A stretch of DNA of 64,000 nucleotides from a virus. Taxonomy: Duplodnaviria > Caudoviricetes. Position 1 is the first letter of the stretch. Each line of letters opens with the position of its first letter. Positions 8,612-53,036 of this stretch are shown here, piece after piece. A program made the translations under genes and the position numbers. Below the pieces are notes generated by a model. It worked only from the letters and a program-made list of their open reading frames with translations, was not told the origin of the DNA and did not search any database. The stretch lies in IMG/VR virus record IMGVR_UViG_3300029288_000060, positions 160,001-224,000 of that record; one strand, given 5' to 3'.

Positions 8612-11600
8612 TTATGTTCTCTCCAATATCAATGAAATAAAATATGAATTTAATAAATCCTTTGCAGGTGATATTTTTGCATCTCTATAATTTGCAGATC
8701 CTGTTTGAACAATATCCGAAATAATTTCATTTTTAGTTGTTAGATCATCACTTAAAGGCCCCATTAGTTCTGATAATAAAGTTGGACAATTGTATGAAAT
8801 TAAAGAATATGTGTCTGCTTCACCTAACCTCTGTCCACCTTCTCTTCTTTTTCCTGATGTAGGTTGTAATGTTTTTCCAGTAACTGGGCCTGTACTTCTT
8901 CCATGCAATTTCATATCCGCCATATGCTCTAATTTACTAAAATACATATATCCTACTGGTACTTCACTTTTTGTTTTTGTTCTATATTGTGGTAAAAATA
9001 ACTCATACCCAGGTTTTAAACCCAAAAAAGACAAAGCTCTTTTAATTTGGTCTTGTTTTGGAGCTTGAAATGGTGGAATTATAATTGGAACAAAAGCTGT
9101 ATTTTTTATCTGGTTTATTAAATTTAAAAACTCTTTATCGCTTAAAACAGATAAATTTGCTATCAATCTGCTTGTAAATTGTTTATTAGGGGAACTATCT
9201 AAAATTGAATAAACAGATTTCATTAAAGTTAAAATTTTATCTTTTCTATTTAGTTGACTAATTCTTATTGCTAAATCTTTTGCAATTAACCCACAATACA
9301 ATTCATATAATTGTCCTATATTACTTCTTCCAATAATACCAATAGGATTAACAATTATATCCATTGTTTCAGACCACGGGGCTGGAGTTCTTGGCATATT
9401 TTCATCTTTTTCTACTAAACATATAATTCCTTTTGCTCCAAATCTGTTACAAAGTTTATCACCAAGATTAATTTTTAATTCTTGCTCAATTTTAAATCTT
9501 ATTAAGATACCATGTATTGTATTACCTTTAACTGAAAATTTTTCTGTTAGAGTGGTTTGATACTTTTTCCTTGTCCTATTAATTAATTCTTGTAGTATTG
9601 GAAATTTATTCTCATCAAGATTTGAAAAAACATCAATGTCAACAATTTTCCCTCCAGGACTTTTCTTAATAAATTGTTGACCTATAACTTCTTCTCCCTC
9701 TTCTTCAGAAAATCCGAGCAATTGTTCAATTTCACCCATCGTTTTCTTTAGAATTGGTTTACCTTTTTCAACATATTCACCAATTTTTGCGATCTCTAAA
9801 ACTCTATCCTTTTCAAAGATTAAAACTTCATCAATTATACCATGAATAGATGTTAATTTATCTTGGTTAATTAATCTTTCATTAATAACAATACCATCTT
9901 CAAAGTTATACCCATCGTAGGGCATTACCGCAGTTAATAAAGTTCTTCCTAAAGAAATGGTTCCATTTGAAATACAACTACCTTCAGCAATAATTTGATT
10001 TGTATGAACATTTTGATTTACTTTAACAATTGGGTTAAAAATGCTAAGAGTATTTTTACCGGTTCCTGACTTTAAGTGTATGGGGCTAATAGGAATTTCT
10101 AAAGTTTTTTTATCTTTACATAAAATAGTAATTGAATCGTTTGTAATATTTATAATTTTGCCATCACAAGGAGCTTTTTTAATAAAATTTTCTGATAAAC
10201 CATTTGTAAACAAAGACTCGTAACCAGATCTTACTACAGGTGGTTCTGGATTTTTTAATGGAATCATCTGTTTAGCTTGGTTTGTAGCCATTATAATTCT
10301 AGCGCCATCATTATTTTCAATAAATGGAATCATACTTGAGGCAACTGATAATATACCAGACTTTTCATTATCAGAAAAAGCTTTTTTAGAAAACAAACCT
10401 CTGGCAGATGTTATAGAAGCACCAATAGATAATTGTTGAGAGATACCAATCATTTCACCTTCTGGAGTATCTAATGGGTCAATATTTCCATAATAGGAGG
10501 GATGAATATTTCTCGCTTCATTTTGTATAGATCTTTTATCGGGAATACCACCAATATTTTTTCCGATGGGTGAAATTCTAGTCATGACTGCCATTTCTTC
10601 GATTGGATTGGCGAATTCCATATTTGCAACTATTTCGGATCTATTAAATTCACTAAGTAGTTTAGTTTGGTTTATTTCAAACTTTGCATTTTTATTACCT
10701 GATATAATTTGTTGTTTATAAATTGTATAGGCAGCTAAAATTTGTTTTTGAACTAGATGAACTAAAACTTCAGATCCTCTAATTCTTTGGTTTAGAATAT
10801 CATTACGATCTTCAACATAACCAATAATTATTTTATATGACATATAATACATAATATCTTTTAACGTTGAAGGTAATTGTTGATTAATTAAAACTTGTTT
10901 TGCAACAGGATCAACAATATTTTCTAAATTTGATAAAATTAAAAATGTTGTGTTAACTTTACCTGTTAACTTAAAAATAACTTCATTAAAATATTCTACA
11001 CTAGCAAATTCTTTTTTAATATCTAATGTATCAATTTTAGCAACAGAAAAGGATGTTATTAATTCTTTCTTTAATTCACTATCTACATTATCAAAATAAA
11101 TATAATTTATATTATCAATTTTAACTACATATTGTTGAGTCTTTTTAGGTTTATCTTGACTAATTTTATATGTTATTCCATACTGAGCTAAAATATGTTC
11201 AAACCCAAAACTAAAAAATAATAGAATTGATAATGGTAACCATGTATTTGCGATAAATATTTCTAAATATTGTAAATTTCTAGTTCTTTTACTTCTTATT
11301 CTAAAAACAGAATACGAGCTTTCAAACCTAGATTCAAACTTTTTAGGAAAAGTTATTGGACATAAAACAATTTGGTTAACTAAACATTTTCTTTGACCAT
11401 TAACTCTAAACGTTCCCGTCTTTTCATCAATTCTTGGAATCTCGATTTGTATATAATGTACTTTTCCATCTTTATCTGTTACAGTTGTTTTTATTAAATT
11501 AATATCTGATTTTTCAATTTCTCCAGCTTTTTGCCTTTTTCCAACTATTTCAATAGGACCTATTTTTAATGGTAATTCTTTAGTCTCTAGTACTTTAAAA

Positions 11601-12732
11601 GAATTTTCTAAATCTTTTTTCAAATTTACTTCAAAATCTATTAATCTTTTTTGAAATAAATGTTGCGGAGACTTATCAGAAACTACTTTTGGAACATTAT
11701 AGGATTTTACAATTGCATCATTTGAAGTATTTATAGGTTTTTGCTGAGTTAATATCTGATCAGAATATTGACTATCAATAATTTTTAGTGAATTACCAAC
11801 TTTTTTTTTGATATGGAATTTGTAATTTTTTTAGCTTTGTTTACATCTCCACTAACTTTACTTAAAATAGAGGCAACCCCAACTTTTTCAAGCCCACTTG
11901 CAGATACTTGTTTTGAGGCTATTTTTTCTTTGGCGACAGGATCTTTTTGTAAATATGATTGAACAGCATCTCTTACTTGTTCTTTATTTTCTGGTTTGAT
12001 TTTAGCATGTATTGTATTCATCACTTGGTCAACAATCTGATCTGTTTCGTCATCCTCTACTTCATCACTTGTATCTAACGAAGTTTCAATTTTACCTGAT
12101 TTAATTGTTTTTAAGATTGTTACAATTCTTTCAAACTTAAAATTTTTATTCTTAACTAATAATCTATATCTAACACCAGACGAAGTGATTAAACATAATA
12201 TTAGATGATCAAATTCAAAAGTTCCTTCTTTAAGTTGTTGAACAATAGGAAAGAATTTTCTATCAACAAATTTATTTAAGTTGTCTTTCGTTAAATCTAT
12301 AGTATACATCAAAACTTTTTCAAAATTATTAAAATCTGAATAAGATTGATTTACAATATTTTTTATAAACAAACTTAATCTTTGACGATAATTGGAAGGA
12401 TTAAAAGTTGAGTCAATAGCATTTAAATAAACAGTTAAATCATAAAATACATTTTTAGATGTAGGAACTTTCATAATTGAAGAATATGAATATATTCCAT
12501 ATTTTTTAAATGCTTTGATTAAATTTTGAGTTATTCTAGTTCTAGGAATTCTAGTCACTGGAATTATATTAATTTTTATATCTACAAGTTTTAAATTTAA
12601 TTTTGGATAGTCTTCTAAAAAACTAGAATTTTCAGAAAAATATGTAACTATGAAATTCTCACCTGGTTTATTAGGAAACCTTATTCCATCAACAACATGT
12701 GTATATTGTCTTAGAGACTTAAATTGAATCAT
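8612..12732 (-). CDS. rpoB: Phage multi-subunit RNA polymerase beta subunit; ORFs 11785..12732 and 8612..11623 joined by a -1 shift at A9 (11801-11809), about 1373 aa
   Basis: RpoB motifs GTFRVNG, HPSYYGNIDPLDTPEG, GYNFEDGI, GDKLCNRFGAKG, NPIGIIGRSN, KLEHM..GGQRLGE. The beta frame is open back to the A9 run, with no Met and no RBS before TTG 11623. Confidence 0.9.
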
Positions 12733-12747
12733 TTTTTAGACTCCTTT

Positions 12748-15700
12748 TTAATCTTCTATTTCTTTTTTCTCAACTAAAGTACCAGTTAACAATCTTTCTA
12801 AGACTGAAGGTGGTAATTCAGTTGTAGTAATCAATCCAGTATTTAGAGCATTATTTACATTCTCAAAAGCTAATCCTTGTAATAATCCGCTATTAAATAT
12901 ATTTTTCTTTATATTCATTAAAACTGGTTTTAATGGATCTTTTCCAACTCTTGCTGGAATAACAGGATTATTACTATCTCTTAAAACTTGACTAATTAAT
13001 ACTTCCATATGCACTAAATCAATACTAGAAATATCACTATATATTTTATAAAATTTTAAAAATAAATGGTTAATATCTTTAAATCTTTCTTTACCAGACA
13101 TTAATCGTTCAACATATAAAACTATTTCTTTTAAATCCTGCTTTTGTAAAGGAACTTCTAACATTTCATAATCTTTATTAAACAATAAATTAATAACATC
13201 TTTAGTCTTATTTATAATTTTAGAATATTTAATAATAACAGGGTAATCTAATATTAAATCAAATGATAAATCTGGAAAGTTTACCTTTGAAATTAAACCA
13301 TTTAAATAGATAGTGTTTTCTTCTTCATTAATAATAAAATTATCACCAATTTCATAACTTTCTAAATCTATTATCATAGAACATAAATCTGTACAATATA
13401 AATTATTTTCGATTTGGTTTAATTTTGTTTTAAGTTGGTTAATATTTAATAAAGGATCATTTTCAAAAATATCTTTTAGAATATCTCTTGTAATAACTTT
13501 AATTGCGGTTGAATGAAATGTACGCATTATCAACTGAGTATTTCGTTCTGCAATATTCTGCGCAGCAATGATTCCAATGTATGGACTTTTATGTACTTGT
13601 AAAAGTTTACCATAACAAGTATGACAAATTTTTAATGATTTACAAAAAATTGGACTTCTTAAATGAATTAAATCACCTGATTTAAAATTAGATGCTTTAA
13701 ATTCTTCTAACTTACCCCTTCTTATTATAAATCTTCCATTAAGTCTGCTGATAATATCTTCATTAAGTTTTATATCCAATGTTAAATCAGTTCCACAATC
13801 TTTTAATGTCCAATCCAATTCAACAGAATTTAGCAAATATGCTAATTTTCTTGCAGTATATCCAGTATCTGCAGTATTAATAACTCTATCAATTATTCCT
13901 GCCCTACTACCACCTGCAGCATTAAAGTATTCTGTCGGAGTTAAACCATCAGATAAAGAACCTTTAATTGGTGGCAAAATTTTACCAGTTGGATCTGCCA
14001 TAATACCCTTTGCAACTAAAATTTGTATTGGTTGATCCCACCCTTTTGTAGAACCCGACTCAACTAAACTATATAACCCAGTATCTTTTAAATGGTTAAT
14101 CATTATTGCTCTCATTTTACTAATTATTTCAACTGCTTCTTCAGTTGTCGCTTTATCTAAATTCTTTTTAAGTTCATATATTTCTGGTGGTATTGTAATT
14201 TCATCTAAATTTAATGATGGTGCTAATAATGTCGAAAATTTAAAACCAATATTTTTTAAACTATTTGCCACTTCTCTGCCTTTTTCATCACCATATTTAT
14301 TAACAACTTCAAAGATTAATTTATTTACAACTTTTTTAGTTACTAAATCGTTTATAAATCTAAAATCTTTTGGAAAGCAATTATTTAAAATTGCTTTTCC
14401 CATTGTTGTATTTTCATTTTTATAAATTACTGGAATATAAGGGTTTGTTGCATTATCTAAATCATCTTGTGATACTTTTATTGGTGATTTAAATTCCTTT
14501 TTGCTGTCTTTTGTTAATAAATATAAACCAACGCACATTTCCTTACTTAATTCAAAAGTGATACTTGTAAACGAATTAGATGACCTTGCTAACATCATTC
14601 TTTTTTTTGCTTCTTCTTGAGATTCAATTGTTAATGGATGAAAAATCGCCATTTGGTCACCATCAAAATCTGCATTAAAACCGCCAACAACAAGTGATGA
14701 AATTTGAACAGAATTACCTTCAACTATAACCGGGTAAAAAGCTCTAACAGATTCCGCATGTAAAACAGGATCTCTTTTTGCTAAAACTACTCTATCTCTT
14801 GATGCTAAAACTGTGGCTTCAAAAAAGATATTATATAATTTATCTGGAACAGTATCATTATTCTTTAAACTTCTTAAAATAATTGAAATACTATTTGTTG
14901 ACAAATCCAAATTTGTAAAATCTTTAATTAAATTCTCAAGTTCTATTTTATTTATCTTGCCAGAATATAATAGAATATGTATAATAAAAGGTTCAAATAA
15001 ACTTAAAGCTAATCTAAATGGAATCCCAATCTGGTCGGCTTTTAATTTGGGATTACCTATAATTACAGCTCTGCCAGAAAAATCTGTTCTTTTACCTAAT
15101 AATTGAGATCTAATTAAACCAAACTTTTTTCCTATTTTTGTTCTTATATAATCATCTAAATCATTAACTGATTTTTGTAATGACCAATTCATTAAATCGA
15201 ACATTGTACCTTCTGTTCCAAATGATTTAATAGAAATGGCTTTTCTTAGTATAGTCAAATATAAATCATTAATTTTATCTTGACTATATCTTCCAGTTTC
15301 ATCTTTATAAATTGGTCTTTGTTCTGGAGGTATTATCGGTACATATTTTATAAATAATGTTTCATTTTGATATGATTCTTGTAGAACTTTTATAAATTTA
15401 TCTCTATCTTCTGATTCACCTCTTATAGATAATTTTGGGTATAATTTTATAAATTCACTTATACCAGTTACTCCACTATCTTCTGATAACAATAATTCAT
15501 TACTATCCAATCTAAAAAAATTTTCTGTAGAAAACATTTTTTCTAACTTTCTGTCTAATCTTAAAAAAATTTTAAATGCAGTTGGATGAATAACTTGCGT
15601 ATTTAAATTTATATAAGAAAAAGTTTTCTTTCTTGCAAGAGAATTTTGGACTCCAAATATTCTCTCAGAAAAGATTCCATCCGGATGAAACTCTTCTGTA

Positions 15701-15777
15701 CGAGTATGGATTAAAGTACTTGTAACTGGTTTTAAACTTTTTACAAAATCATCCAGATTTAAAAATTTTAATGGCAT
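12748..15777 (-). CDS. rpoC: Phage multi-subunit RNA polymerase beta' subunit
   Basis: Catalytic NADFDGDQM, LLGKRTDFSGRAVI, RDPVLH, bridge helix TADTGYTARKL, Zn site DCGT..CKSLKICHTC, trigger loop TQLIMRTFH. Confidence 0.96.
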   Translation of the reverse strand: MPLKFLNLDDFVKSLKPVTSTLIHTRTEEFHPDGIFSERIFGVQNSLARKKTFSYINLNTQVIHPTAFKIFLRLDRKLEKMFSTENFFRLDSNELLLSEDSGVTGISEFIKLYPKLSIRGESEDRDKFIKVLQESYQNETLFIKYVPIIPPEQRPIYKDETGRYSQDKINDLYLTILRKAISIKSFGTEGTMFDLMNWSLQKSVNDLDDYIRTKIGKKFGLIRSQLLGKRTDFSGRAVIIGNPKLKADQIGIPFRLALSLFEPFIIHILLYSGKINKIELENLIKDFTNLDLSTNSISIILRSLKNNDTVPDKLYNIFFEATVLASRDRVVLAKRDPVLHAESVRAFYPVIVEGNSVQISSLVVGGFNADFDGDQMAIFHPLTIESQEEAKKRMMLARSSNSFTSITFELSKEMCVGLYLLTKDSKKEFKSPIKVSQDDLDNATNPYIPVIYKNENTTMGKAILNNCFPKDFRFINDLVTKKVVNKLIFEVVNKYGDEKGREVANSLKNIGFKFSTLLAPSLNLDEITIPPEIYELKKNLDKATTEEAVEIISKMRAIMINHLKDTGLYSLVESGSTKGWDQPIQILVAKGIMADPTGKILPPIKGSLSDGLTPTEYFNAAGGSRAGIIDRVINTADTGYTARKLAYLLNSVELDWTLKDCGTDLTLDIKLNEDIISRLNGRFIIRRGKLEEFKASNFKSGDLIHLRSPIFCKSLKICHTCYGKLLQVHKSPYIGIIAAQNIAERNTQLIMRTFHSTAIKVITRDILKDIFENDPLLNINQLKTKLNQIENNLYCTDLCSMIIDLESYEIGDNFIINEEENTIYLNGLISKVNFPDLSFDLILDYPVIIKYSKIINKTKDVINLLFNKDYEMLEVPLQKQDLKEIVLYVERLMSGKERFKDINHLFLKFYKIYSDISSIDLVHMEVLISQVLRDSNNPVIPARVGKDPLKPVLMNIKKNIFNSGLLQGLAFENVNNALNTGLITTTELPPSVLERLLTGTLVEKKEIED

Positions 15778-19402: not shown

Positions 19403-20299
19403 TTACCTGTCACCACTCGGAGTTGCACCTGTAGCACTAGTTGCTGGTCCAGCAGCCCCACAATTTTCATTTATTTTAGAACCATCCATATTAACTGGAC
19501 CACCTGCTAATTCATTTATATTACCTCCTGCTTGTATATTTACATTTCCGTCTCCTTTGTTATTTATATTTCCTGCTGCGTGTAAATTAATATCTGCCCC
19601 TGCTTTAAAGTGAATACTATCAGCAGCTTTCATATAAATACTTCCATTAGATTTAATATGAATATCTGACTGTACGGAAATTTGTAATTTCTGATTCTCC
19701 ACATCAAAATTTATATAATCCCCTTTGTGACTTCTAAATAAAATTTTTTCCTTGCCTGCTCTTTCATCAATTAAAATTGTTGTTTGATTGCCATCAATGG
19801 TATAAACAGACGATGTATCACCAACTGGTGGCGATGACAATTGTCTCTTTTTTCCAGTAATCTCAACTCGCTCATCAGAGGTATCATCAGAAATTACTAT
19901 CGTTCTGCCAGAATGACTTTTATATATAACCCATTTTTTTTCTGGACTACCACCCAATTGACATTCTGGTAAAACTTTTGTATTTTCTAAATCTAGTCCA
20001 CATAAATAATATGGTTTACTTGGGTTTTCATTTTCAAAAAACACCAATACCCAACTTCCTATAGGAGGGACATAACATGACCCAGCATAAAAATGTTGTT
20101 CATTTCCACTAGCATTTAAACCTGATATTGGATTATTTGCAGGTCTTGCCCATGCAACCTCATTACCAGTAACACCTGGCATAGTATCAGGAATTTTAAC
20201 CCTAACTCTTCCATGCATCTGGGGATCTTTATTATCAGTTACTTCTGCTCTAAAGAACCCACTTAATTTAGATTTATCTTCTTTTTCAGTTCCCATCAT
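19403..20299 (-). CDS. Baseplate hub/spike protein (T4 gp5/VgrG-like OB fold + beta-helix, no lysozyme domain)
   Basis: AEVTDNKDPQMHGRVRVKIP, VPPIGSWVLVFFENENPSKPYY; C-terminal 8-residue IxxxAGG-type repeats. Confidence 0.88.
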   Translation of the reverse strand: MMGTEKEDKSKLSGFFRAEVTDNKDPQMHGRVRVKIPDTMPGVTGNEVAWARPANNPISGLNASGNEQHFYAGSCYVPPIGSWVLVFFENENPSKPYYLCGLDLENTKVLPECQLGGSPEKKWVIYKSHSGRTIVISDDTSDERVEITGKKRQLSSPPVGDTSSVYTIDGNQTTILIDERAGKEKILFRSHKGDYINFDVENQKLQISVQSDIHIKSNGSIYMKAADSIHFKAGADINLHAAGNINNKGDGNVNIQAGGNINELAGGPVNMDGSKINENCGAAGPATSATGATPSGDR

Positions 20300-24277: not shown

Positions 24278-25065
24278 TTATACTAGTGCAGCCATTGCTT
24301 CTGGTAAACTCTTTCCTGTTGCATTTGCAAGTCTTTGTCCAAAACGTAACTTTAAAGCATGTAAACTAGATGGATTTAATTTACCTGCAGCAGACAACGA
24401 ATTTCTTTGGTTTTTGAACATACTTATTATAGGTTTTACAAAAGGACCTGTTATACCTTCATCAACAATTTCTTCGTCATCTACTTTTTTTTTATTTCTT
24501 CATCAACATCATTTTCAAGAATATTCATTGCTGCTTCTACAAGATTATCCCTTAAAATTTTATAGGCGTCTTCAATGATTTTTCCATTCCAAGTATTTAG
24601 TTTATTAATTTTCTTTGATTCAGTAATAGCCCGACCAATTAAAAGATTATCTATAGCTAATGAAAATGCTTTTGTTCGAATTTTTTCCTGGACAATCTTT
24701 TCAATATCAATCTTGTTATTTTTTATCTTAGAAATAGATTCACGTAATTCAGTTTTGACACTTTTTCTTCCTTGTTTTGAGGTTACCAACTTTTTACAAT
24801 TTTCTCTTGCAATAATAGCACTTTCCCTTGCCATTTTTCTTAAACCACTAGCATCTACCTTTTCAGTCAGCGTAGATGGATTATGTTTTACTAATTTATA
24901 CATTTCAATAACAAGAGACATTAAAGCACCTTTTATTGAAAAATACTCCTCTACAAAAACAGGGCAACAAACGTTTACCTTAGATACAGGTTTACCAAAT
25001 AAAACATAATCTAATGAATAAAAATTTTCAAGCACTCTGATCTTTGATTCTTTTTTCAATTTCAT
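24278..25065 (-). CDS. Hypothetical protein: 194 aa (24481..25065), extendable to about 262 aa by a -1 shift at A9 (24485-24493)
   Basis: Ends ATA AAA AAA AAG TAG; the -1 frame stays open for 68 codons (VDDEEIVDEG..EAMAALV*) and fills the gap to the next gene. Confidence 0.7.
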
Positions 25066-41751: not shown

Positions 41752-42038
41752 TCTTTATATTCCTCTGTATATTTAGTCATATGTACTAAAACATTTGCTA
41801 AAAACTTATCTGGATTTATTTTTTTTTGCTGGATTTGACTAGTTAAAATATTTTTTAGGGATGCAAAAAAATTATCAAAATTAATTAATTGACCAGATGG
41901 AGCCTTTTCTTTTGCCATTGGACATTTTTCTCCAACTTTTAAGGGTGGATGAGAAAAACCACACTGACTACAAATTGAATGAGACATTAAATCCATACAT
42001 ACCTCACTTTGTCTTTTATATATGTTCTTTACAAACAA
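41748..42038 (-). CDS. Small Zn-ribbon hypothetical protein
   Basis: CSQCGFSHPP..CP; the true start is probably an internal Met. Confidence 0.65.
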   Translation of the reverse strand: MFVKNIYKRQSEVCMDLMSHSICSQCGFSHPPLKVGEKCPMAKEKAPSGQLINFDNFFASLKNILTSQIQQKKINPDKFLANVLVHMTKYTEEYKE

Positions 42039-47550: not shown

Positions 47551-48060
47551 TTATTCCTCCTTTGCCCATTTAGCGACGATACGGCCTGTACCGTTGCAAT
47601 TTTGACAATAGAATTCATTTTTATTAACACCATAGGGCGTAACATCCCCTTTGCCTTCACATTCAGGACATTCCTCCCATCCCCATTTCTCTCTTGTTTC
47701 TGGCAGTGCCAACCATTCGGAGAGTAAGACCATGATGCGTGGTTCGCCTTCGTCGGTGAGGGAGAAGAGCCATATATAATTGCTTTGTATTGTGAAAGGT
47801 CTTTTATCGGTATCAAACCAACGTTCCCACTGCCAACCGCCGAACGCTTCCCACATCTCCCTCTTCTCCTTCCAAAACCACTGCAAGAAGGGGAGGTGGG
47901 TGTTGGGGGAGGAGTAGTCGGGATTAGGATTGAAAAAGTTTCTTAGTTCAATTTTCTCTCCACATTTAATACAGCTTGTATATCCTTTCTCTGTCAAATA
48001 TGGGAATGGTTCATGAAAGCACTTCCCTTCAAACAAGCACAACAGTTTATGGTTTATCAC
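47551..48060 (-). CDS. Cys-rich hypothetical protein with C-terminal DnaJ-like finger
   Basis: GTG start at 48060 with AAAGGAG RBS; CPECEGKG..CQNCNGTG. Confidence 0.65.
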   Translation of the reverse strand: MINHKLLCLFEGKCFHEPFPYLTEKGYTSCIKCGEKIELRNFFNPNPDYSSPNTHLPFLQWFWKEKREMWEAFGGWQWERWFDTDKRPFTIQSNYIWLFSLTDEGEPRIMVLLSEWLALPETREKWGWEECPECEGKGDVTPYGVNKNEFYCQNCNGTGRIVAKWAKEE

Positions 48061-48272
48061 TTTTTTATCTCCTTTGTAGGAAACTTGCAGTCTGTCATCC
48101 AATTTCCCCATGAAGAAATGATAGGAACACCACCTTGTGCAATACAAGCGTTTATAGACTTCCTTCTTGCATCGGCATATTCCTGATCTGAAATTGTGTC
48201 GGTAGGACTACAACCCACTAAAAGAATTGCAACCAAAACAAGTATTGAAAATAAGAGTTTATGATTTATCAT
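48057..48272 (-). CDS. Small lipoprotein
   Basis: ATG 48272 after GGAGG; lipobox LLVGC. Confidence 0.7.
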   Translation of the reverse strand: MINHKLLFSILVLVAILLVGCSPTDTISDQEYADARRKSINACIAQGGVPIISSWGNWMTDCKFPTKEIKK

Positions 48273-48327
48273 CTTGACCTCCTTCGAGAGCATACAGAAA
48301 TATTATAAGTCTATACAATCTCCAATT

Positions 48328-48759
48328 TTATAGTAGTTTTTGAGTTACTTCCTCATGCTCACAGTTTTCACACTCATAAACATACCACCATTCTGTAACC
48401 GCTCCAGTTCTTGAATCGTAATCACCTTCTCTTTTAAATTCCAATTTTTTCTTATATTTATGTTTACATTTTTTGTGAACATTGAGCGACTTAATCACAC
48501 GGCTAAGACACTCACATAACTCTGTACATTGTTCTATTTTTTGCATTGGGCAATCTGAACAGTCCATTTTATATCGGTATCTTGCAATATCTTTTAGTTT
48601 ATCCCACTTCTCGGCCTTCTCGATGGTGGGGGCAAGGAGGGAGAGGATAGAATCAGCAACTTTATCTGCATCATAGTCACATTCACAAGAGGACATATAA
48701 TCTTTCTGAAAGCCACTATGGGCTATGGTACATATCTCTCTTTTCAGTTCATCCTTCAT
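48328..48759 (-). CDS. Array gene: MKDEL module + EKAEKWDK module + Cys cluster
   Basis: GGAG RBS; modules shared with neighbours. Confidence 0.7.
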   Translation of the reverse strand: MKDELKREICTIAHSGFQKDYMSSCECDYDADKVADSILSLLAPTIEKAEKWDKLKDIARYRYKMDCSDCPMQKIEQCTELCECLSRVIKSLNVHKKCKHKYKKKLEFKREGDYDSRTGAVTEWWYVYECENCEHEEVTQKLL

Positions 48760-48770
48760 CTCTCATCTCC

Positions 48771-49034
48771 TTAACATAGTGGGCATTCATCTATCCCGCC
48801 AAGTTTGCCGTGAATGGGACAGTCGTATTCCTCGATAATCTTAAAGCCTTCCACCTCATTGTAAACCACATATCTTGCCTTCTCATCCTCAAGGGGACAC
48901 CAAGCGGGGATACCTTCTTTTTCAACTATCTGGTCAGTACCCATGCACCTGTCGATAGTGGTAGTTCCGTCCCCCGCCAATTCTTCATACGACCACGGAC
49001 ATTCCCCGCAGTTCTCAACCTTGATTATTTTCAT
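48771..49034 (-). CDS. Array gene: MKIIKV-CxxC..CPLEDEK module
   Basis: Start corrected to ATG 49034 after GGAGG. Confidence 0.7.
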   Translation of the reverse strand: MKIIKVENCGECPWSYEELAGDGTTTIDRCMGTDQIVEKEGIPAWCPLEDEKARYVVYNEVEGFKIIEEYDCPIHGKLGGIDECPLC

Positions 49035-49035
49035 C

Positions 49036-49323
49036 TTAACCTCCTTCGAGAGCTTCGACGATACTCTTTGCATATACACAAAGTACCTCTTCGCATGTTA
49101 TCAGGGGGCAGGTATCGCACGTTCGAGTATTTCTCAACGCCGCTATCTCCTTCACCTTATCCCACTTCTCGGCCTCCTTCTCATCCTCAAGGGGACACTC
49201 TTTAGGAATGACATTACTATCAATAACTCTGCCTGTTACTCCGCATCGTTTTATCCCAAACACTATCAGACCGTTGTTAATTTTAGGACAATCGAAACAG
49301 CTTCTAACCTTGATTATTTTCAT
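49036..49323 (-). CDS. Array gene: MKIIKV..CPLEDEK + AEKWDKVKE + Cys + VEALEGG
   Basis: Start corrected to ATG 49323 after GGAGG. Confidence 0.7.
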   Translation of the reverse strand: MKIIKVRSCFDCPKINNGLIVFGIKRCGVTGRVIDSNVIPKECPLEDEKEAEKWDKVKEIAALRNTRTCDTCPLITCEEVLCVYAKSIVEALEGG

Positions 49324-49693
49324 CTTGACCTCCTTCGAGAGCTTCGACGACATCCCTGAATATACAACCACCGTACTCCAAGGTACAGGCATCTTCTTTC
49401 CATAAAGGGCATTTGCACGGTGGTCTTGAATCTGCACACTCCTTCACCTTATCCCATAGGCGAGCCTTCTCGATGGCAGGATCAGGGTGTTGAATATCAG
49501 AAAGTATAGCTTTTGTCAACATTTCTTTTAGTTCTGGTTTAACATCGTCCATAAAGAAATGTAACCAGCGTTTTACTGTTTTTAATTCTTGTTGTGTCTT
49601 CTCAGCTTTCTTTAACTCAATCCTTATTTCATCAAGGATAGCACCGTTTTGAAAGTCTTCTATTTTAAGTTTATCAAACTCTTTAACTGTCAT
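49304..49693 (-). CDS. Array gene: KAEK..WxHFF + EKARLWDKVKE + Cys + VEALEGG
   Basis: Modules shared with neighbours. Confidence 0.7.
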   Translation of the reverse strand: MTVKEFDKLKIEDFQNGAILDEIRIELKKAEKTQQELKTVKRWLHFFMDDVKPELKEMLTKAILSDIQHPDPAIEKARLWDKVKECADSRPPCKCPLWKEDACTLEYGGCIFRDVVEALEGGQDENNQG

Positions 49694-49870
49694 TCTTGTA
49701 CCCCTCTTCGTGGTCTTCTGTTGACAATGAAAACCATCTAACTTGACTCAAAGGAATATGTCTATTTGTCCCGTTCGACAATCGCATCCATAAAAGATAA
49801 GCTCCAAACCGCACTTCGGAGCATTCAAATACTTCTCTGTAACCGTCCCACCACCTTACATTAACTGTTT

Positions 49871-50194
49871 TCATCCCTTACCTCCTTCGAGAGCATCGTT
49901 AATATCTTTGCAGACGGCACCAGGGTACAAATGGGAACCGCAGATATAATTCAGGAAGCACTTGTCACATGAGGTTTCGAAGAGGGATTTTAGTTTATCC
50001 CACTTCTGAGCCTTCTCCCGCGTCTCGTTATCCTCTGCACCCGCCAGTTTTATAATCCTGTCAGTATGGGCTTCGGATAGTTTTTTCTCAAGTTCTATAC
50101 ACTCAGGGCACTCAATCCATGCCCTAACTATAAGTCTTTCGGGTACTTCGTTTGATACTTGTTTGCCACATTTCGAGCATTTAACGTGACTCAT
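49871..50194 (-). CDS. Array gene: Zn ribbon + EKAQKWDK + Cys + DALEGG
   Basis: Modules shared with neighbours. Confidence 0.7.
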   Translation of the reverse strand: MSHVKCSKCGKQVSNEVPERLIVRAWIECPECIELEKKLSEAHTDRIIKLAGAEDNETREKAQKWDKLKSLFETSCDKCFLNYICGSHLYPGAVCKDINDALEGGKG

Positions 50195-50489
50195 CTTTCA
50201 CCTCTATAAGAGCTTCTTCAAGTATCTGAATAACAGGAGTAGCCGATTTTACCATTGCTTCTTCTCTATCTGTTCCAACATCTCTTGCAAAGAAATGGAA
50301 CCATACTTTCACGGATTTCAATGTCTCTTTCATCTTCTCAGCCTTCTCAAGTTCGGGGGCAAGGATTGAGACGATTGAATCTGCAAACTTCCTTCCTTCG
50401 GATAGACAAAGAAGAAAGTCCCAATATTTTCCGTAACGATATTTTGCATAGAGTTCGGCTATCTTCTCTTTCAGTTCATCTGTGTTCAT
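50181..50489 (-). CDS. Array gene: DELKE + ADSIxSxLAP + EKAEK..WFHFF
   Basis: Modules shared with neighbours. Confidence 0.7.
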   Translation of the reverse strand: MNTDELKEKIAELYAKYRYGKYWDFLLCLSEGRKFADSIVSILAPELEKAEKMKETLKSVKVWFHFFARDVGTDREEAMVKSATPVIQILEEALIEVKDESR

Positions 50490-50788
50490 CTTTATATTCC
50501 TCTAATTTAAAATTTTAAAAAGTATCGTGTAAATTATAGCGAATATTGTAATCCATATGATTAAGACTCTTATGTCAAGCATTTTTTATACCTTGCCAAA
50601 ATTTTTCATATTTTTCTTGTACAGTACCGTTTCTTACGTCCTCTGGAAGATTCATATAATTAGGATAATCCTTAAATAAAATTATCTCCGGCCAAGAGGA
50701 CAGGTCTGTAACCTTCCAAACTATTATCCCGATTCCATTCTTAACTATTTTGACGGCTTTCTTTCTATTCTTATAGGTCAATATTTCA

Positions 50789-51001
50789 TTAAACATCTTT
50801 CACTTCGAGAGCTTCGACAAGTATATCCATCATGCAACGCCTACGTCGATCACAATAACGTTCAATAGGACACTTCACATTCTCCAACCCTACAATACAT
50901 GCGTTTTCCTCTATCTCCTTCACCTTATCCCATAGGCGAGCTTTCTCTTGGAGTCCTTTCAATTCCCTATCATCAATCATGGTCATATTCATGCTAGTCA
51001 T
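50789..51001 (-). CDS. Array gene: EKARLWDKVKE + Cys + VEALEVKD
   Basis: Start corrected to ATG 51001. Confidence 0.65.
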   Translation of the reverse strand: MTSMNMTMIDDRELKGLQEKARLWDKVKEIEENACIVGLENVKCPIERYCDRRRRCMMDILVEALEVKDV

Positions 51002-51362
51002 CTTTCTTGCCCCCTTCAAGGTTTTGTACAACCATATAACAAGCATCTATCAAATCATAATTGTTGTATGTTTTTCTCGCGTTATCATCTACGGGAATGT
51101 TTGCTATTCGCTTTACACTATTCCATTTTTCAGCCTTCTTAAGTTCAGGGGTAATGATGGAGAATGTTTTATCGACAATAAGATTTGTCAGTTTTTTTAC
51201 TCTGGCGCGGAAGAGGGGGTCGGTATTAAATCTGCCAATAGCATATTTTTCTTTGTTGTTTATTACATTTGCGGTAGTTGTACTTAAGTATACCGGGTAG
51301 AAAAACTGGTCGAGCAAAATGGTCGTAATGTACTGTATTTCATGAAATAGTTCATCCTTCAT
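50994..51362 (-). CDS. Array gene: MKDEL + KKAEKW + LEGG
   Basis: Modules shared with neighbours. Confidence 0.7.
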   Translation of the reverse strand: MKDELFHEIQYITTILLDQFFYPVYLSTTTANVINNKEKYAIGRFNTDPLFRARVKKLTNLIVDKTFSIITPELKKAEKWNSVKRIANIPVDDNARKTYNNYDLIDACYMVVQNLEGGKKDD

Positions 51363-51714
51363 CCTTCACCTCTATTCGTTTACCACACTTATGACAGAAA
51401 GTATAACCTTCATAAAATTCAAACATACCACATGAAGTTATATATACGTCTTGACCATGTATTTGCCAATCATCCTTTGTCCACACGCATCTCTCAGCGT
51501 TGACAAGGGAGAGAATGCGGTCAGCAACTTCGTATTTATCCCAATATGGTGGGTCGTAACATCCTGCTTCGCTTGCTATTTCCTCTCTCAGTTCATCCTT
51601 TACTTGGTTTTCTTGTATCTTTTCCAAGAAGGTCTTACCATGCTTGAGGTAATATTCTTCATCCTCTTCCCTAATCTTTTTTACTTCTTCAATAGCTTTG
51701 TTAATGTTGTTCAT
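51352..51714 (-). CDS. Array gene: KDEL + ADRILSL + Zn ribbon + IEVKDE
   Basis: Modules shared with neighbours; GGAGG RBS. Confidence 0.7.
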   Translation of the reverse strand: MNNINKAIEEVKKIREEDEEYYLKHGKTFLEKIQENQVKDELREEIASEAGCYDPPYWDKYEVADRILSLVNAERCVWTKDDWQIHGQDVYITSCGMFEFYEGYTFCHKCGKRIEVKDEG

Positions 51715-53036
51715 CTTCCTCCTCCAAATACACTAATGCTGGATGCTTTCTTGTGCCGGAGCCGTGACAGGTTGAACATTTTTTACCATTAATCTGTAAA
51801 CTATTGATTGTACCATCATCCATTATCACACCACACTTAGGACATTTCTTTATTCCCCACTCCCGATACTTTGAAAGATAGTTAATGAGATTATCCATAT
51901 TAAGTTGAGCGTTGAGTTGACCAATAAATGAATTTGTATCATCGTTTGCATGACAAGTCATATGAGCCATTTCCTCAAGATAAGATTCCCACACCTCCGG
52001 TAATTCCCGTTCCATATATTTCTTAACATAACCGAATTTATCAAGAGAAGAATCAGAATAAATTTGACTATAGTTCATGTTGACAAGCTTGGCTAAAAAC
52101 ATATCCTTATCCATATTTGCCTCTTTTCTCCTTTGTTTTTTCCTCTTATCTCTTTTAAGTTGACACATGATACACGTCGCTCCATCATAAAAATACTTTT
52201 TACAAGTATTATCTGGGCAACAGATAACAATATCATTTTTCATGGATTATCCTCATAAACATGCTTCCAATAACCCCCGCACCACGTAGATGGTTTATAC
52301 CATACGATTTTAGTGAATATCCAGTATTTTCTGTAAATCAATTCTCCGATTGTTTCATCATAAAATGTCCCGCCACATTTGGGACAACACGTTCCTTCTA
52401 TTGGGACAGCGATTTTGCATTTCAGACACCCTCTTATACTAACATAATGTTCATACATGATTATCTCCAAGACCGCAGAAACCATGTCTGTCGGGTTTTA
52501 TTCTTGAGTACTCTATAGTGGCCGGGCTTATATTGTTTTTTGACCATCCATCTTCTTCACAACATGGAGTAGGTCTATCATACGTAATTTCTATTTCAGG
52601 TTCAGACCATTTCCACAACTGACAATCAGAAGCATCACATTTGATTTCATCCATTTTGTTAATTTCAGATGGAAGATAAAAGTTTGGAATTGTTAACACT
52701 GCCGCTTTGTACTTTGGACATATTGTCTTTCTTGCCTCTTCTTCAGTCATTTATTCCTCGCTTGGTAAATGAATCATACCAACCTGATATCTTTTTTGGC
52801 ATCTCCTACAAACTGTATATAATTTAGCATGTCTTCTTCCAATACCATCCGTAATATATTCTTCAACTTCAAAATATCTATTACAATCTCCATCTATACC
52901 ATCACCATAATAACCAGGTTCAGGCCTATGACCAAATAATTTACAAAGAATCATTTTTTCACTCCTTTTTTATCTTCATATAACTTATTAATTTCTATTT
53001 CTCCTAAGATTTATATATCCCCCAAAAAATATCAGT

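Follow-up and report, generated by a model that had tools for sequence, protein, structure and literature searches.

A run of nine adenines as a probable programmed slippage site in a jumbo phage, with the same run in its RNA polymerase beta gene

Genomic context and organization of the core locus

The source record is 268,812 bp long with overlapping ends and a GC content of 27.8%. The window, which is the whole stretch of 64,000 nucleotides analysed here, represents bases 160001-224000 of this record. It encodes Rpb1-like and Rpb2-like RNA polymerase subunits, a UvsX-like recombinase and a Cas4-like PD-(D/E)XK nuclease. The source is accordingly a jumbo phage that encodes a multisubunit RNA polymerase of its own. 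No close relative was found among 50,697 deposited phage records by tblastn and megablast. The region 48001-52000 of the window has a GC content of 39% against 25-31% in the rest of the window, and no tRNA was found there.

The locus under study lies between a KH-domain gene and the nuclease gene. This position is constant among relatives, and a UvsX gene is usually found near. The following features were assigned.

24481..25065, minus strand: core ORF, encoding the short isoform as it stands, 194 aa, all-helical, with the TAG stop at 24481-24483
24484..24493, minus strand: putative slippage site, A9 then G; frame 0 reads A AAA AAA AAG with TAG directly after
24278..24484, minus strand: extension of 68 codons in the -1 frame, codons at 24281-24484 and TAA at 24278-24280

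The core ORF ends with ATA AAA AAA AAG TAG, in which the A9 run occupies 24485-24493. Reading on from this run in the -1 frame gives KKK and 68 further residues up to the TAA at 24278-24280. Both the ending and the 68 open codons agree exactly with a preliminary description of this DNA, which had also placed the extension in an otherwise empty gap of about 200 bp; the gap upstream of the PD-(D/E)XK nuclease gene (start 24241) measures 239 bp and is indeed filled by the extension. In L002, a relative without extension, the corresponding gap is only 16 bp. Given the off-frame stop frequency of this genome (0.1175 per codon), the probability that an off-frame stretch stays open for at least 68 codons is about 2e-4. 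The extension frame is accessible only through a frame change at the A9 run. Its first ATG occurs 21 codons past the run and opens a 47-aa ORF (24278..24421) inside the extension. Gene callers annotate the 194-aa ORF alone at this locus.

The AF2 model of the core protein is composed of helices only (pLDDT 87). Its fold had no Foldseek match in PDB or BFVD at E <= 0.001, and the VIA-align matches were all generic helical bundles (Z < 6). No match to the core, the extension or the N-terminal fragment of RNA polymerase beta described below came from Pfam, PHROGs or NCBIfam. The extension of the window consists of an acidic linker, a GPF motif and a basic C-terminal half, and a search of the genome for motifs like DEG..GPF found them at this locus only.

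Conservation of the run and the extension in relatives

Homologues of the core protein number 534; the majority have 183-195 aa and a minority 259-325 aa. About 105 loci were fetched for comparison, with several more obtained by exact protein look-up. Thirteen loci from 13 assemblies, including the window, carry a run of A8-A11 where the core domain ends, a stop in frame 0 one to two codons on and an out-of-frame extension that reaches the nuclease gene (WIN, L122, L035, L120, L039, L044, L046, L050, L121, L051, L086, L029 and L111). Twelve of these extensions comprise 61-152 codons, and that of L120 is cut by the contig end after 29 codons. The peptide following the run is conserved as KKK-[VL][VITD][SDNKE][ED]. 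In all 13 loci, 8-79 codons separate the run from the nearest potential start codon of the extension frame. To reach the extension, a shift of -1 is required in the ten A9/A10 loci and in L111 (A11), and of +1 in L120 (A8) and L121 (A11); +1 is likewise needed in P0004 and P0005, as read from their KKTS endings. Length of the run varies even in close relatives, as L120 (A8) and L035 (A9) have the same extension and the group of L050, L123 and L121 shows A9, A10 and A11, respectively.

The extension type of the window was found in only one other locus, L122, which belongs to another phage and comes from an NCBI assembly. Its core is 78% identical and ends with CTA AAA AAA AAG TAA. The first 34 residues of its -1 extension show 47% identity and 82% positives with that of the window (E 6e-9), and DEG..GPFVK is common to both. 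The search for the extension in relatives proposed in the preliminary description has thus found a homologue. Synonymous and non-synonymous counts between the two extensions were saturated. Because the conserved part lies upstream of the first ATG in the window, the alignment indicates that translation of the extension proceeds across the junction. Longer fused proteins with this extension type were searched for and none was found, which is weak evidence. Independent initiation of the extension was considered and rejected: the conserved residues precede the first ATG, and ATG, GTG and TTG are all absent from the first 60 codons of the L122 extension.

In several other relatives, namely P0009, P0040, P0042, P0043, L036, L049 and L123, core and extension are joined in one frame with the KKKV junction kept. 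The junction of L036 is GTT A9 GTA. Those of L049 and L123 have A10, and with a contig coverage of about 1-3 these run lengths are less certain. L021 has an in-frame A9G and its -1 frame stops after two codons. If slippage occurs, both arrangements, with either the short or the long form in frame 0, would give a short and a long product.

The frames that do not lead to the extension are closed quickly. Without exception in the 16 run-bearing loci that were measured, each of these two frames meets a stop 0-3 codons past the run, with a mean of 0.66 codons against 7.5 expected. L021, L036 and L003 were among the loci assessed, and L111 was omitted, its run being outside the scan. The double stops span about ten different junction sequences, such as GTAGATGA, GTAAATGA, CTAGTTAG and CTAACTGA.

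Read-through of the TAG codon was rejected as a route to the extension, as TAG read as sense would add only 10 residues at the core gene and hardly moves the coding density (0.869 to 0.873). Since coding density is barely altered, there is no genome-wide TAG recoding; TAG ends 30 of 282 long ORFs. A tRNA with the anticodon CUA, of the amber suppressor type and labelled Pyl by ARAGORN, lies outside the window at genome 263759-263829 on the plus strand. The frame-0 stop is TAG at 9 of the 13 sites of the core-gene family, a preference that probably reflects the conserved [GC]TAG junction.

The same run in the RNA polymerase beta gene

A second gene of the window is interrupted at an A9G run.

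11785..12732, minus strand: RNA polymerase beta (Rpb2-like), N-terminal part, 315 aa in frame 0, with the stop four codons after A9G
11801..11809, minus strand: A9 run of RNA polymerase beta, TCA AAA AAA AAG TTG
8612..11809, minus strand: remainder of RNA polymerase beta in the -1 frame, 1065 codons and stop, joined to the N-terminal part only after a frame change

The -1 part contains Pfam PF04565, PF00562 and PF04560, which are Rpb2 domains 3, 6 and 7, in order. The upstream gene of 1009 aa contains PF00623 and PF04998 (Rpb1-like), and PHROG RNA polymerase beta families also match. The polymerase genes at 8612-15777 (minus strand) are arranged as beta' (Rpb1-like, 1009 aa) followed by beta (Rpb2-like), the reverse of the bacterial order rpoB-rpoC. 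Gene callers report beta as two proteins of 315 aa and 1003 aa.

With the 315-aa fragment as query, eleven relatives were retrieved; they have 311-324 aa and 54-72% identity and lie on contigs of up to 108 kb. All eleven end with ITNxxxKK(K/N) and 4-9 further residues, KKK being present in nine and KKN in two. In addition to the window, the DNA of seven related beta loci was read (L124, L125/L126, L127, L128/L129 and L116), which represent six distinct sequences. They show NCA AAA AAA AA(G/C), conserved beta residues follow the run in the -1 frame without a start codon there, and length and phase of the A9 run are invariant across the six sequences. In the window, the 60 residues that follow the run before the first start codon align over their full length with the in-frame beta of L003 and G001/L004. 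The beta gene of L003 has the same A9G in frame, with a stop in the -1 frame after one codon, while that of G001 has no run. Since eleven N-terminal fragments are broken at the same lysine run and beta continues in the -1 frame, a clade of these phages is inferred to need a frame change for full-length beta. A split beta with a separate start of the C-terminal part was rejected, as the conserved sequence sets in at the run itself and the next start codon is about 54-60 codons away. A literature search found no report of a conserved frame change in a viral multisubunit RNA polymerase gene.

The core and beta sites have the same A9G signature in the same phase, as the preliminary description had claimed, and both need -1. 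Its consensus NNA AAA AAA AAG T holds at both sites of the window and is not kept among the core-gene relatives, in which run length, phase and the following base vary. The layout of a recoding site is retained in both genes, with A8-A11 and an extension in 13 core loci and a break after the same lysine run in 11 beta relatives, and the recoding interpretation is supported by these sequence comparisons.

Avoidance of A9 runs in the genome

A genome-wide census of A9G runs against ORF breaks had been proposed earlier. The 268,812-bp genome was found to possess six A9/T9 runs. Two are at the recoding breaks, one is the T-tract of a terminator, one closes its gene as KKK-stop and two are in-frame A9T. 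The terminator-type run, an A9G outside the window at genome 249131-249139, is non-coding and belongs to a minus-strand hairpin resembling an intrinsic terminator (GGGGGA...TCCCCC). The two in-frame A9T runs are as follows.

41819..41827 of the window, minus strand: control A9 then T, in frame, ORF unbroken
19585-19593 of the genome, plus strand: A9T in frame inside a gene

No A10 or T10 was found in the whole genome, so that A9 is the longest run. The preliminary description had given the third A9 of the window as followed by T in an unbroken ORF, and had seen no A10 in the window; the first point is confirmed and the second now extends to the complete genome. It had also inferred a genome-wide recoding signal. 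Recoding at two genes is supported, as relatives keep both breaks, while the signal is restricted to these two genes and does not represent a general code.

Only three A9 runs are present in the window against 35 +/- 9 expected from shuffles. KKK is written AAA AAA AAA in 2 of 53 cases against 32.6 expected, despite AAA being 85% of the lysine codons, and AAA AAG AAA is used for KKK 26 times against 5.7 expected. A9 is therefore strongly purged from coding sequence elsewhere in the genome, and the strength of this purge shows that such runs have real consequences in this phage system.

Assembly error, decay and real breaks

A run of nine adenines at a gene break raises the question of whether the true sequence is A10. 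The break could be a homopolymer under-call, a recent frameshift with a dead C-terminal remnant, or the extension could be an independent small gene. Assemblies err most often by a single base in a long homopolymer, gene callers see the 194-aa ORF alone, and the 47-aa ATG ORF within the extension would suit a small gene. The exact 194-aa ORF is, in turn, present in the ENA MEGAHIT contig and in the Logan contig of SRR8542065. The exact 315-aa beta fragment is found in MEGAHIT, Logan and NCBI contigs, with A9G in all three, and the NCBI contig represents a second strain with 11 differences in 2,945 bases. The break is thus reproduced in MEGAHIT, Logan and NCBI assemblies, and in 13 independent datasets for the core gene and 7 for beta. 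The 13 out-of-frame assemblies include A8 and A11, which a one-base under-call cannot explain. The extension ORFs remain open for 61-152 codons against about 8 expected, and the conservation ahead of the first ATG in the window, together with the startless L122 extension, does not suit a separate gene. In view of these comparisons the artefact or decay reading seems largely refuted already and is hardly tenable; the A10-to-A9 assembly error, which the preliminary description had kept as its alternative, is very unlikely when runs of A8-A11 with extensions lie at the same place in 13 loci from 13 assemblies. When the genome was scanned for pairs of ORFs whose open frames overlap and in which the first start codon is far off, no general pattern of broken genes emerged, and the beta site was the clearest outlier with 54 codons to the first start codon.

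Mechanism of the frame change

At the core gene, the sequence comparisons establish that the site exists and is conserved, that the extension is coding and how the stops are arranged. On this basis the following route is proposed. The A9 mRNA, as templated, would give the 194-aa core protein ending with KKK before TAG. Most likely, RNA polymerase would slip on the nine-T template and add one A in a fraction of the transcripts. Ordinary translation of A10 transcripts would then lead from KKK into the 68-residue extension and yield a long isoform of 262 aa. With any other run length, such as A8 and A11, translation would end no more than two codons further on, and the product would in essence be the short isoform. 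RNA polymerase beta may use this device too, in the same phase, and its shifted product would be the full-length subunit. The ratio of the isoforms, and a tail on the long form that serves in localisation or partner binding, are inferred.

Three features of a slippage-type site are present, namely A9 in a coding region, a conserved continuation in the reached frame and nearby stops in both other frames; a fourth, mRNA with more A's than the DNA, is predicted. A stop in a frame that a ribosome shifting by -1 never enters makes sense only with heterogeneous run lengths in the mRNA. Likewise, the variation of run length and shift direction across the core loci fits heterogeneous polymerase slippage better than one ribosomal event. 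We therefore regard the A9G run of the core gene as a programmed slippage site, with the frame change at the RNA level, at a probability of roughly 0.6; the frame change is inferred without RNA, read or protein data. Efficient slippage at A9 would cause both in-frame A9T genes to yield truncated products as well. These two genes count against efficient slippage, as some of their product would be lost.

A AAA AAG is the classic and best bacterial -1 heptamer, of the E. coli dnaX and IS911 type. In a programmed -1 frameshift on the ribosome, tRNA-Lys bound at the P and A sites would slip back one base on this heptamer, aided by the stop, and the mRNA would stay A9. The heptamer is in phase at both sites of the window and at most related sites, with A AAA AAC at the others, and the frame-0 stop follows it directly in 10 of the 13 core loci. 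G follows the run at most sites in two unrelated genes, which would favour the ribosome or may merely reflect a Val codon, and the invariant length and phase of the beta run in the six sequences read as DNA suit a ribosomal signal but are expected from common descent alone. Every site has at least 8 A's, more than the heptamer requires, and a uniform shift direction is not found, as L120 (A8), P0004, P0005 and L121 (A11) need +1. Both other frames are closed at once, including the one that a -1 ribosome never enters. The remaining hallmark, a stimulatory structure or Shine-Dalgarno-like (SD-like) element, was not found. When the 60 nt past 12 sites were folded, no conserved downstream RNA structure was seen; 11 of them have z-values of -1.0 to +1.2, and the single well-folding site (L005, z -3.1) belongs to another gene. 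No consistent upstream SD-like element was seen at the folded sites. Unstimulated or stop-assisted ribosomal shifting is not excluded by these results. Ribosomal frameshifting could contribute or even be the main route, and as the explanation of the site it is possible though rather doubtful. The earlier inference of recoding into short and long isoforms is supported by conservation, and polymerase slippage is more likely its basis than a phase-specific ribosomal signal.

Heterogeneity may instead reside in the DNA, where replication slippage would maintain mixed A9 and A10 genomes with one isoform each and the assemblies would show the majority allele. The tract does mutate, as run length differs among close relatives (L120 and L035; L050, L123 and L121), and the double-stop design fits length heterogeneity of any origin. 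An A9 genome would, for all that, be without full-length beta, yet A9 is the consensus in seven independent datasets. Out-of-frame alleles are moreover the majority in 13 of 16 run-bearing loci, a state hard to maintain if the long form came from in-frame genomes only. Phase variation of DNA alone is quite improbable, and polymerase slippage remains the preferred reading.

Comparison with known systems

Tailed phages possess tail assembly chaperone genes of the lambda G/GT type with a conserved ribosomal -1 shift on heptamers such as G GGA AAG. This frameshift is also mentioned in the review of Atkins et al. (PMC5009743). As in the present phages, a minor C-terminally extended product is made by a frame change that is conserved over divergent phages, even when their sequences have drifted apart. 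The chaperone site differs in having a fixed place in the tail module, whereas the sites described here are homopolymers with 8 or more A's and belong to a DNA-metabolism module and to RNA polymerase beta.

The same review (PMC5009743) describes the layout of Thermus thermophilus dnaX, with stops nearby in both other frames, and reports that RNA polymerase slips efficiently on nine consecutive A or T. The likeness to dnaX tau/gamma includes the slippery sequence (A9 or A AAA AAG), the two isoforms and the stops in both other frames. Relatives also differ in which isoform is in frame 0 (PMC5009743), as do the phages, since L021, L036 and L003 have the long form in frame 0 and quick stops after a slip. 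In contrast, frame 0 encodes the long form in Thermus and E. coli and usually the short form in the phages; the SD and stem-loop stimulators of E. coli were not found at the phage sites, and the proteins are unrelated.

In tssM of Citrobacter rodentium and Yersinia, a poly-A run precedes a stop, and added A's give the full-length protein beside a truncated one (Gueguen et al. 2014, PMC4256274). According to that study, the two forms are required, and so is their ratio (PMC4256274). The phage gene resembles tssM in having two length variants with a common N-terminus and a poly-A run before a stop inside the gene. It differs in its A9 in place of A11, in belonging to other gene families than a bacterial secretion gene, in bearing hypervariable extension cassettes and in resting on comparative evidence only, tssM slippage having been demonstrated experimentally.

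AT-rich genomes in which long A runs interrupt genes, including essential ones, and polymerase infidelity allows their expression are a further likeness, found in insect endosymbionts; Tamas et al. are said to have described in 2008 frameshifts in poly(A) tracts that are rescued there by transcriptional slippage. The breaks of endosymbionts are seen as tolerated decay, whereas those of the phages are kept across lineages at 52-81% protein identity, and the phage has a dedicated stop design and has purged A9 from the rest of the genome. Genome-wide slippage spectra are given in PMC5574713.

Extension cassettes and implications

The extensions are hypervariable, and several have a hydrophobic stretch, paired Cx3C motifs and a lysine-rich end. 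The cassettes are bounded by a conserved junction of an A-run and GTAGTTA[AG]TGA, and their order appears shuffled in relatives. In L049 (1060-1240) a second junction, A7 + GTAGTTAATGA, divides two extension cassettes, and in L121 (1070-1375) two cassettes are likewise divided by A5 + GTAGTTAGTGA. P0040 and P0042 contain the same two cassettes in opposite order, each after KK(K)VV(N/S)E. This pattern suggests that the cassettes may be shuffled at the junction motif. The long form is inferred to be a minor species that tethers or localises the core protein, a function which is likewise inferred.

A further site was noticed in G001 (IMGVR_UViG_3300014204_000115; L005, minus strand, about 1489-1497), where TCA AAA AAA AAG TAG ends the gene of a very acidic 290-aa protein. 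It has a -1 tail of 32 codons beginning with KKKVEDEGII, and its downstream 60 nt give the z of -3.1 mentioned above. The orthologue of this acidic gene in G000 (genome 10261-11169) has no run and no tail.

It is conceivable, although unlikely on present evidence, that a clade of jumbo phages has a small regulon resting on one slippage signal, A9 with G or C after it. Such a regulon would dose the swappable C-terminal cassettes on the conserved core protein and gate the synthesis of RNA polymerase beta. With the output of polymerase tied to polymerase slippage, a feedback loop linked to fidelity would arise, and the 313-aa N-terminal fragment of beta would be a functional product in its own right.

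Slippage on A runs to give two isoforms is of a known kind. The notable points are the conservation of the site, its presence in a viral RNA polymerase gene and the cassette-like tails. Both genes are split or truncated by gene callers, which makes the annotation of these loci systematically wrong in this phage group. For recoding research, the break in beta would be a new natural system in which run length, phase and context differ among dozens of variants. The combination of a conserved core with hypervariable tails, several of which look membrane-anchoring or Cys-rich, suggests a device for dosing alternative C-terminal modules.
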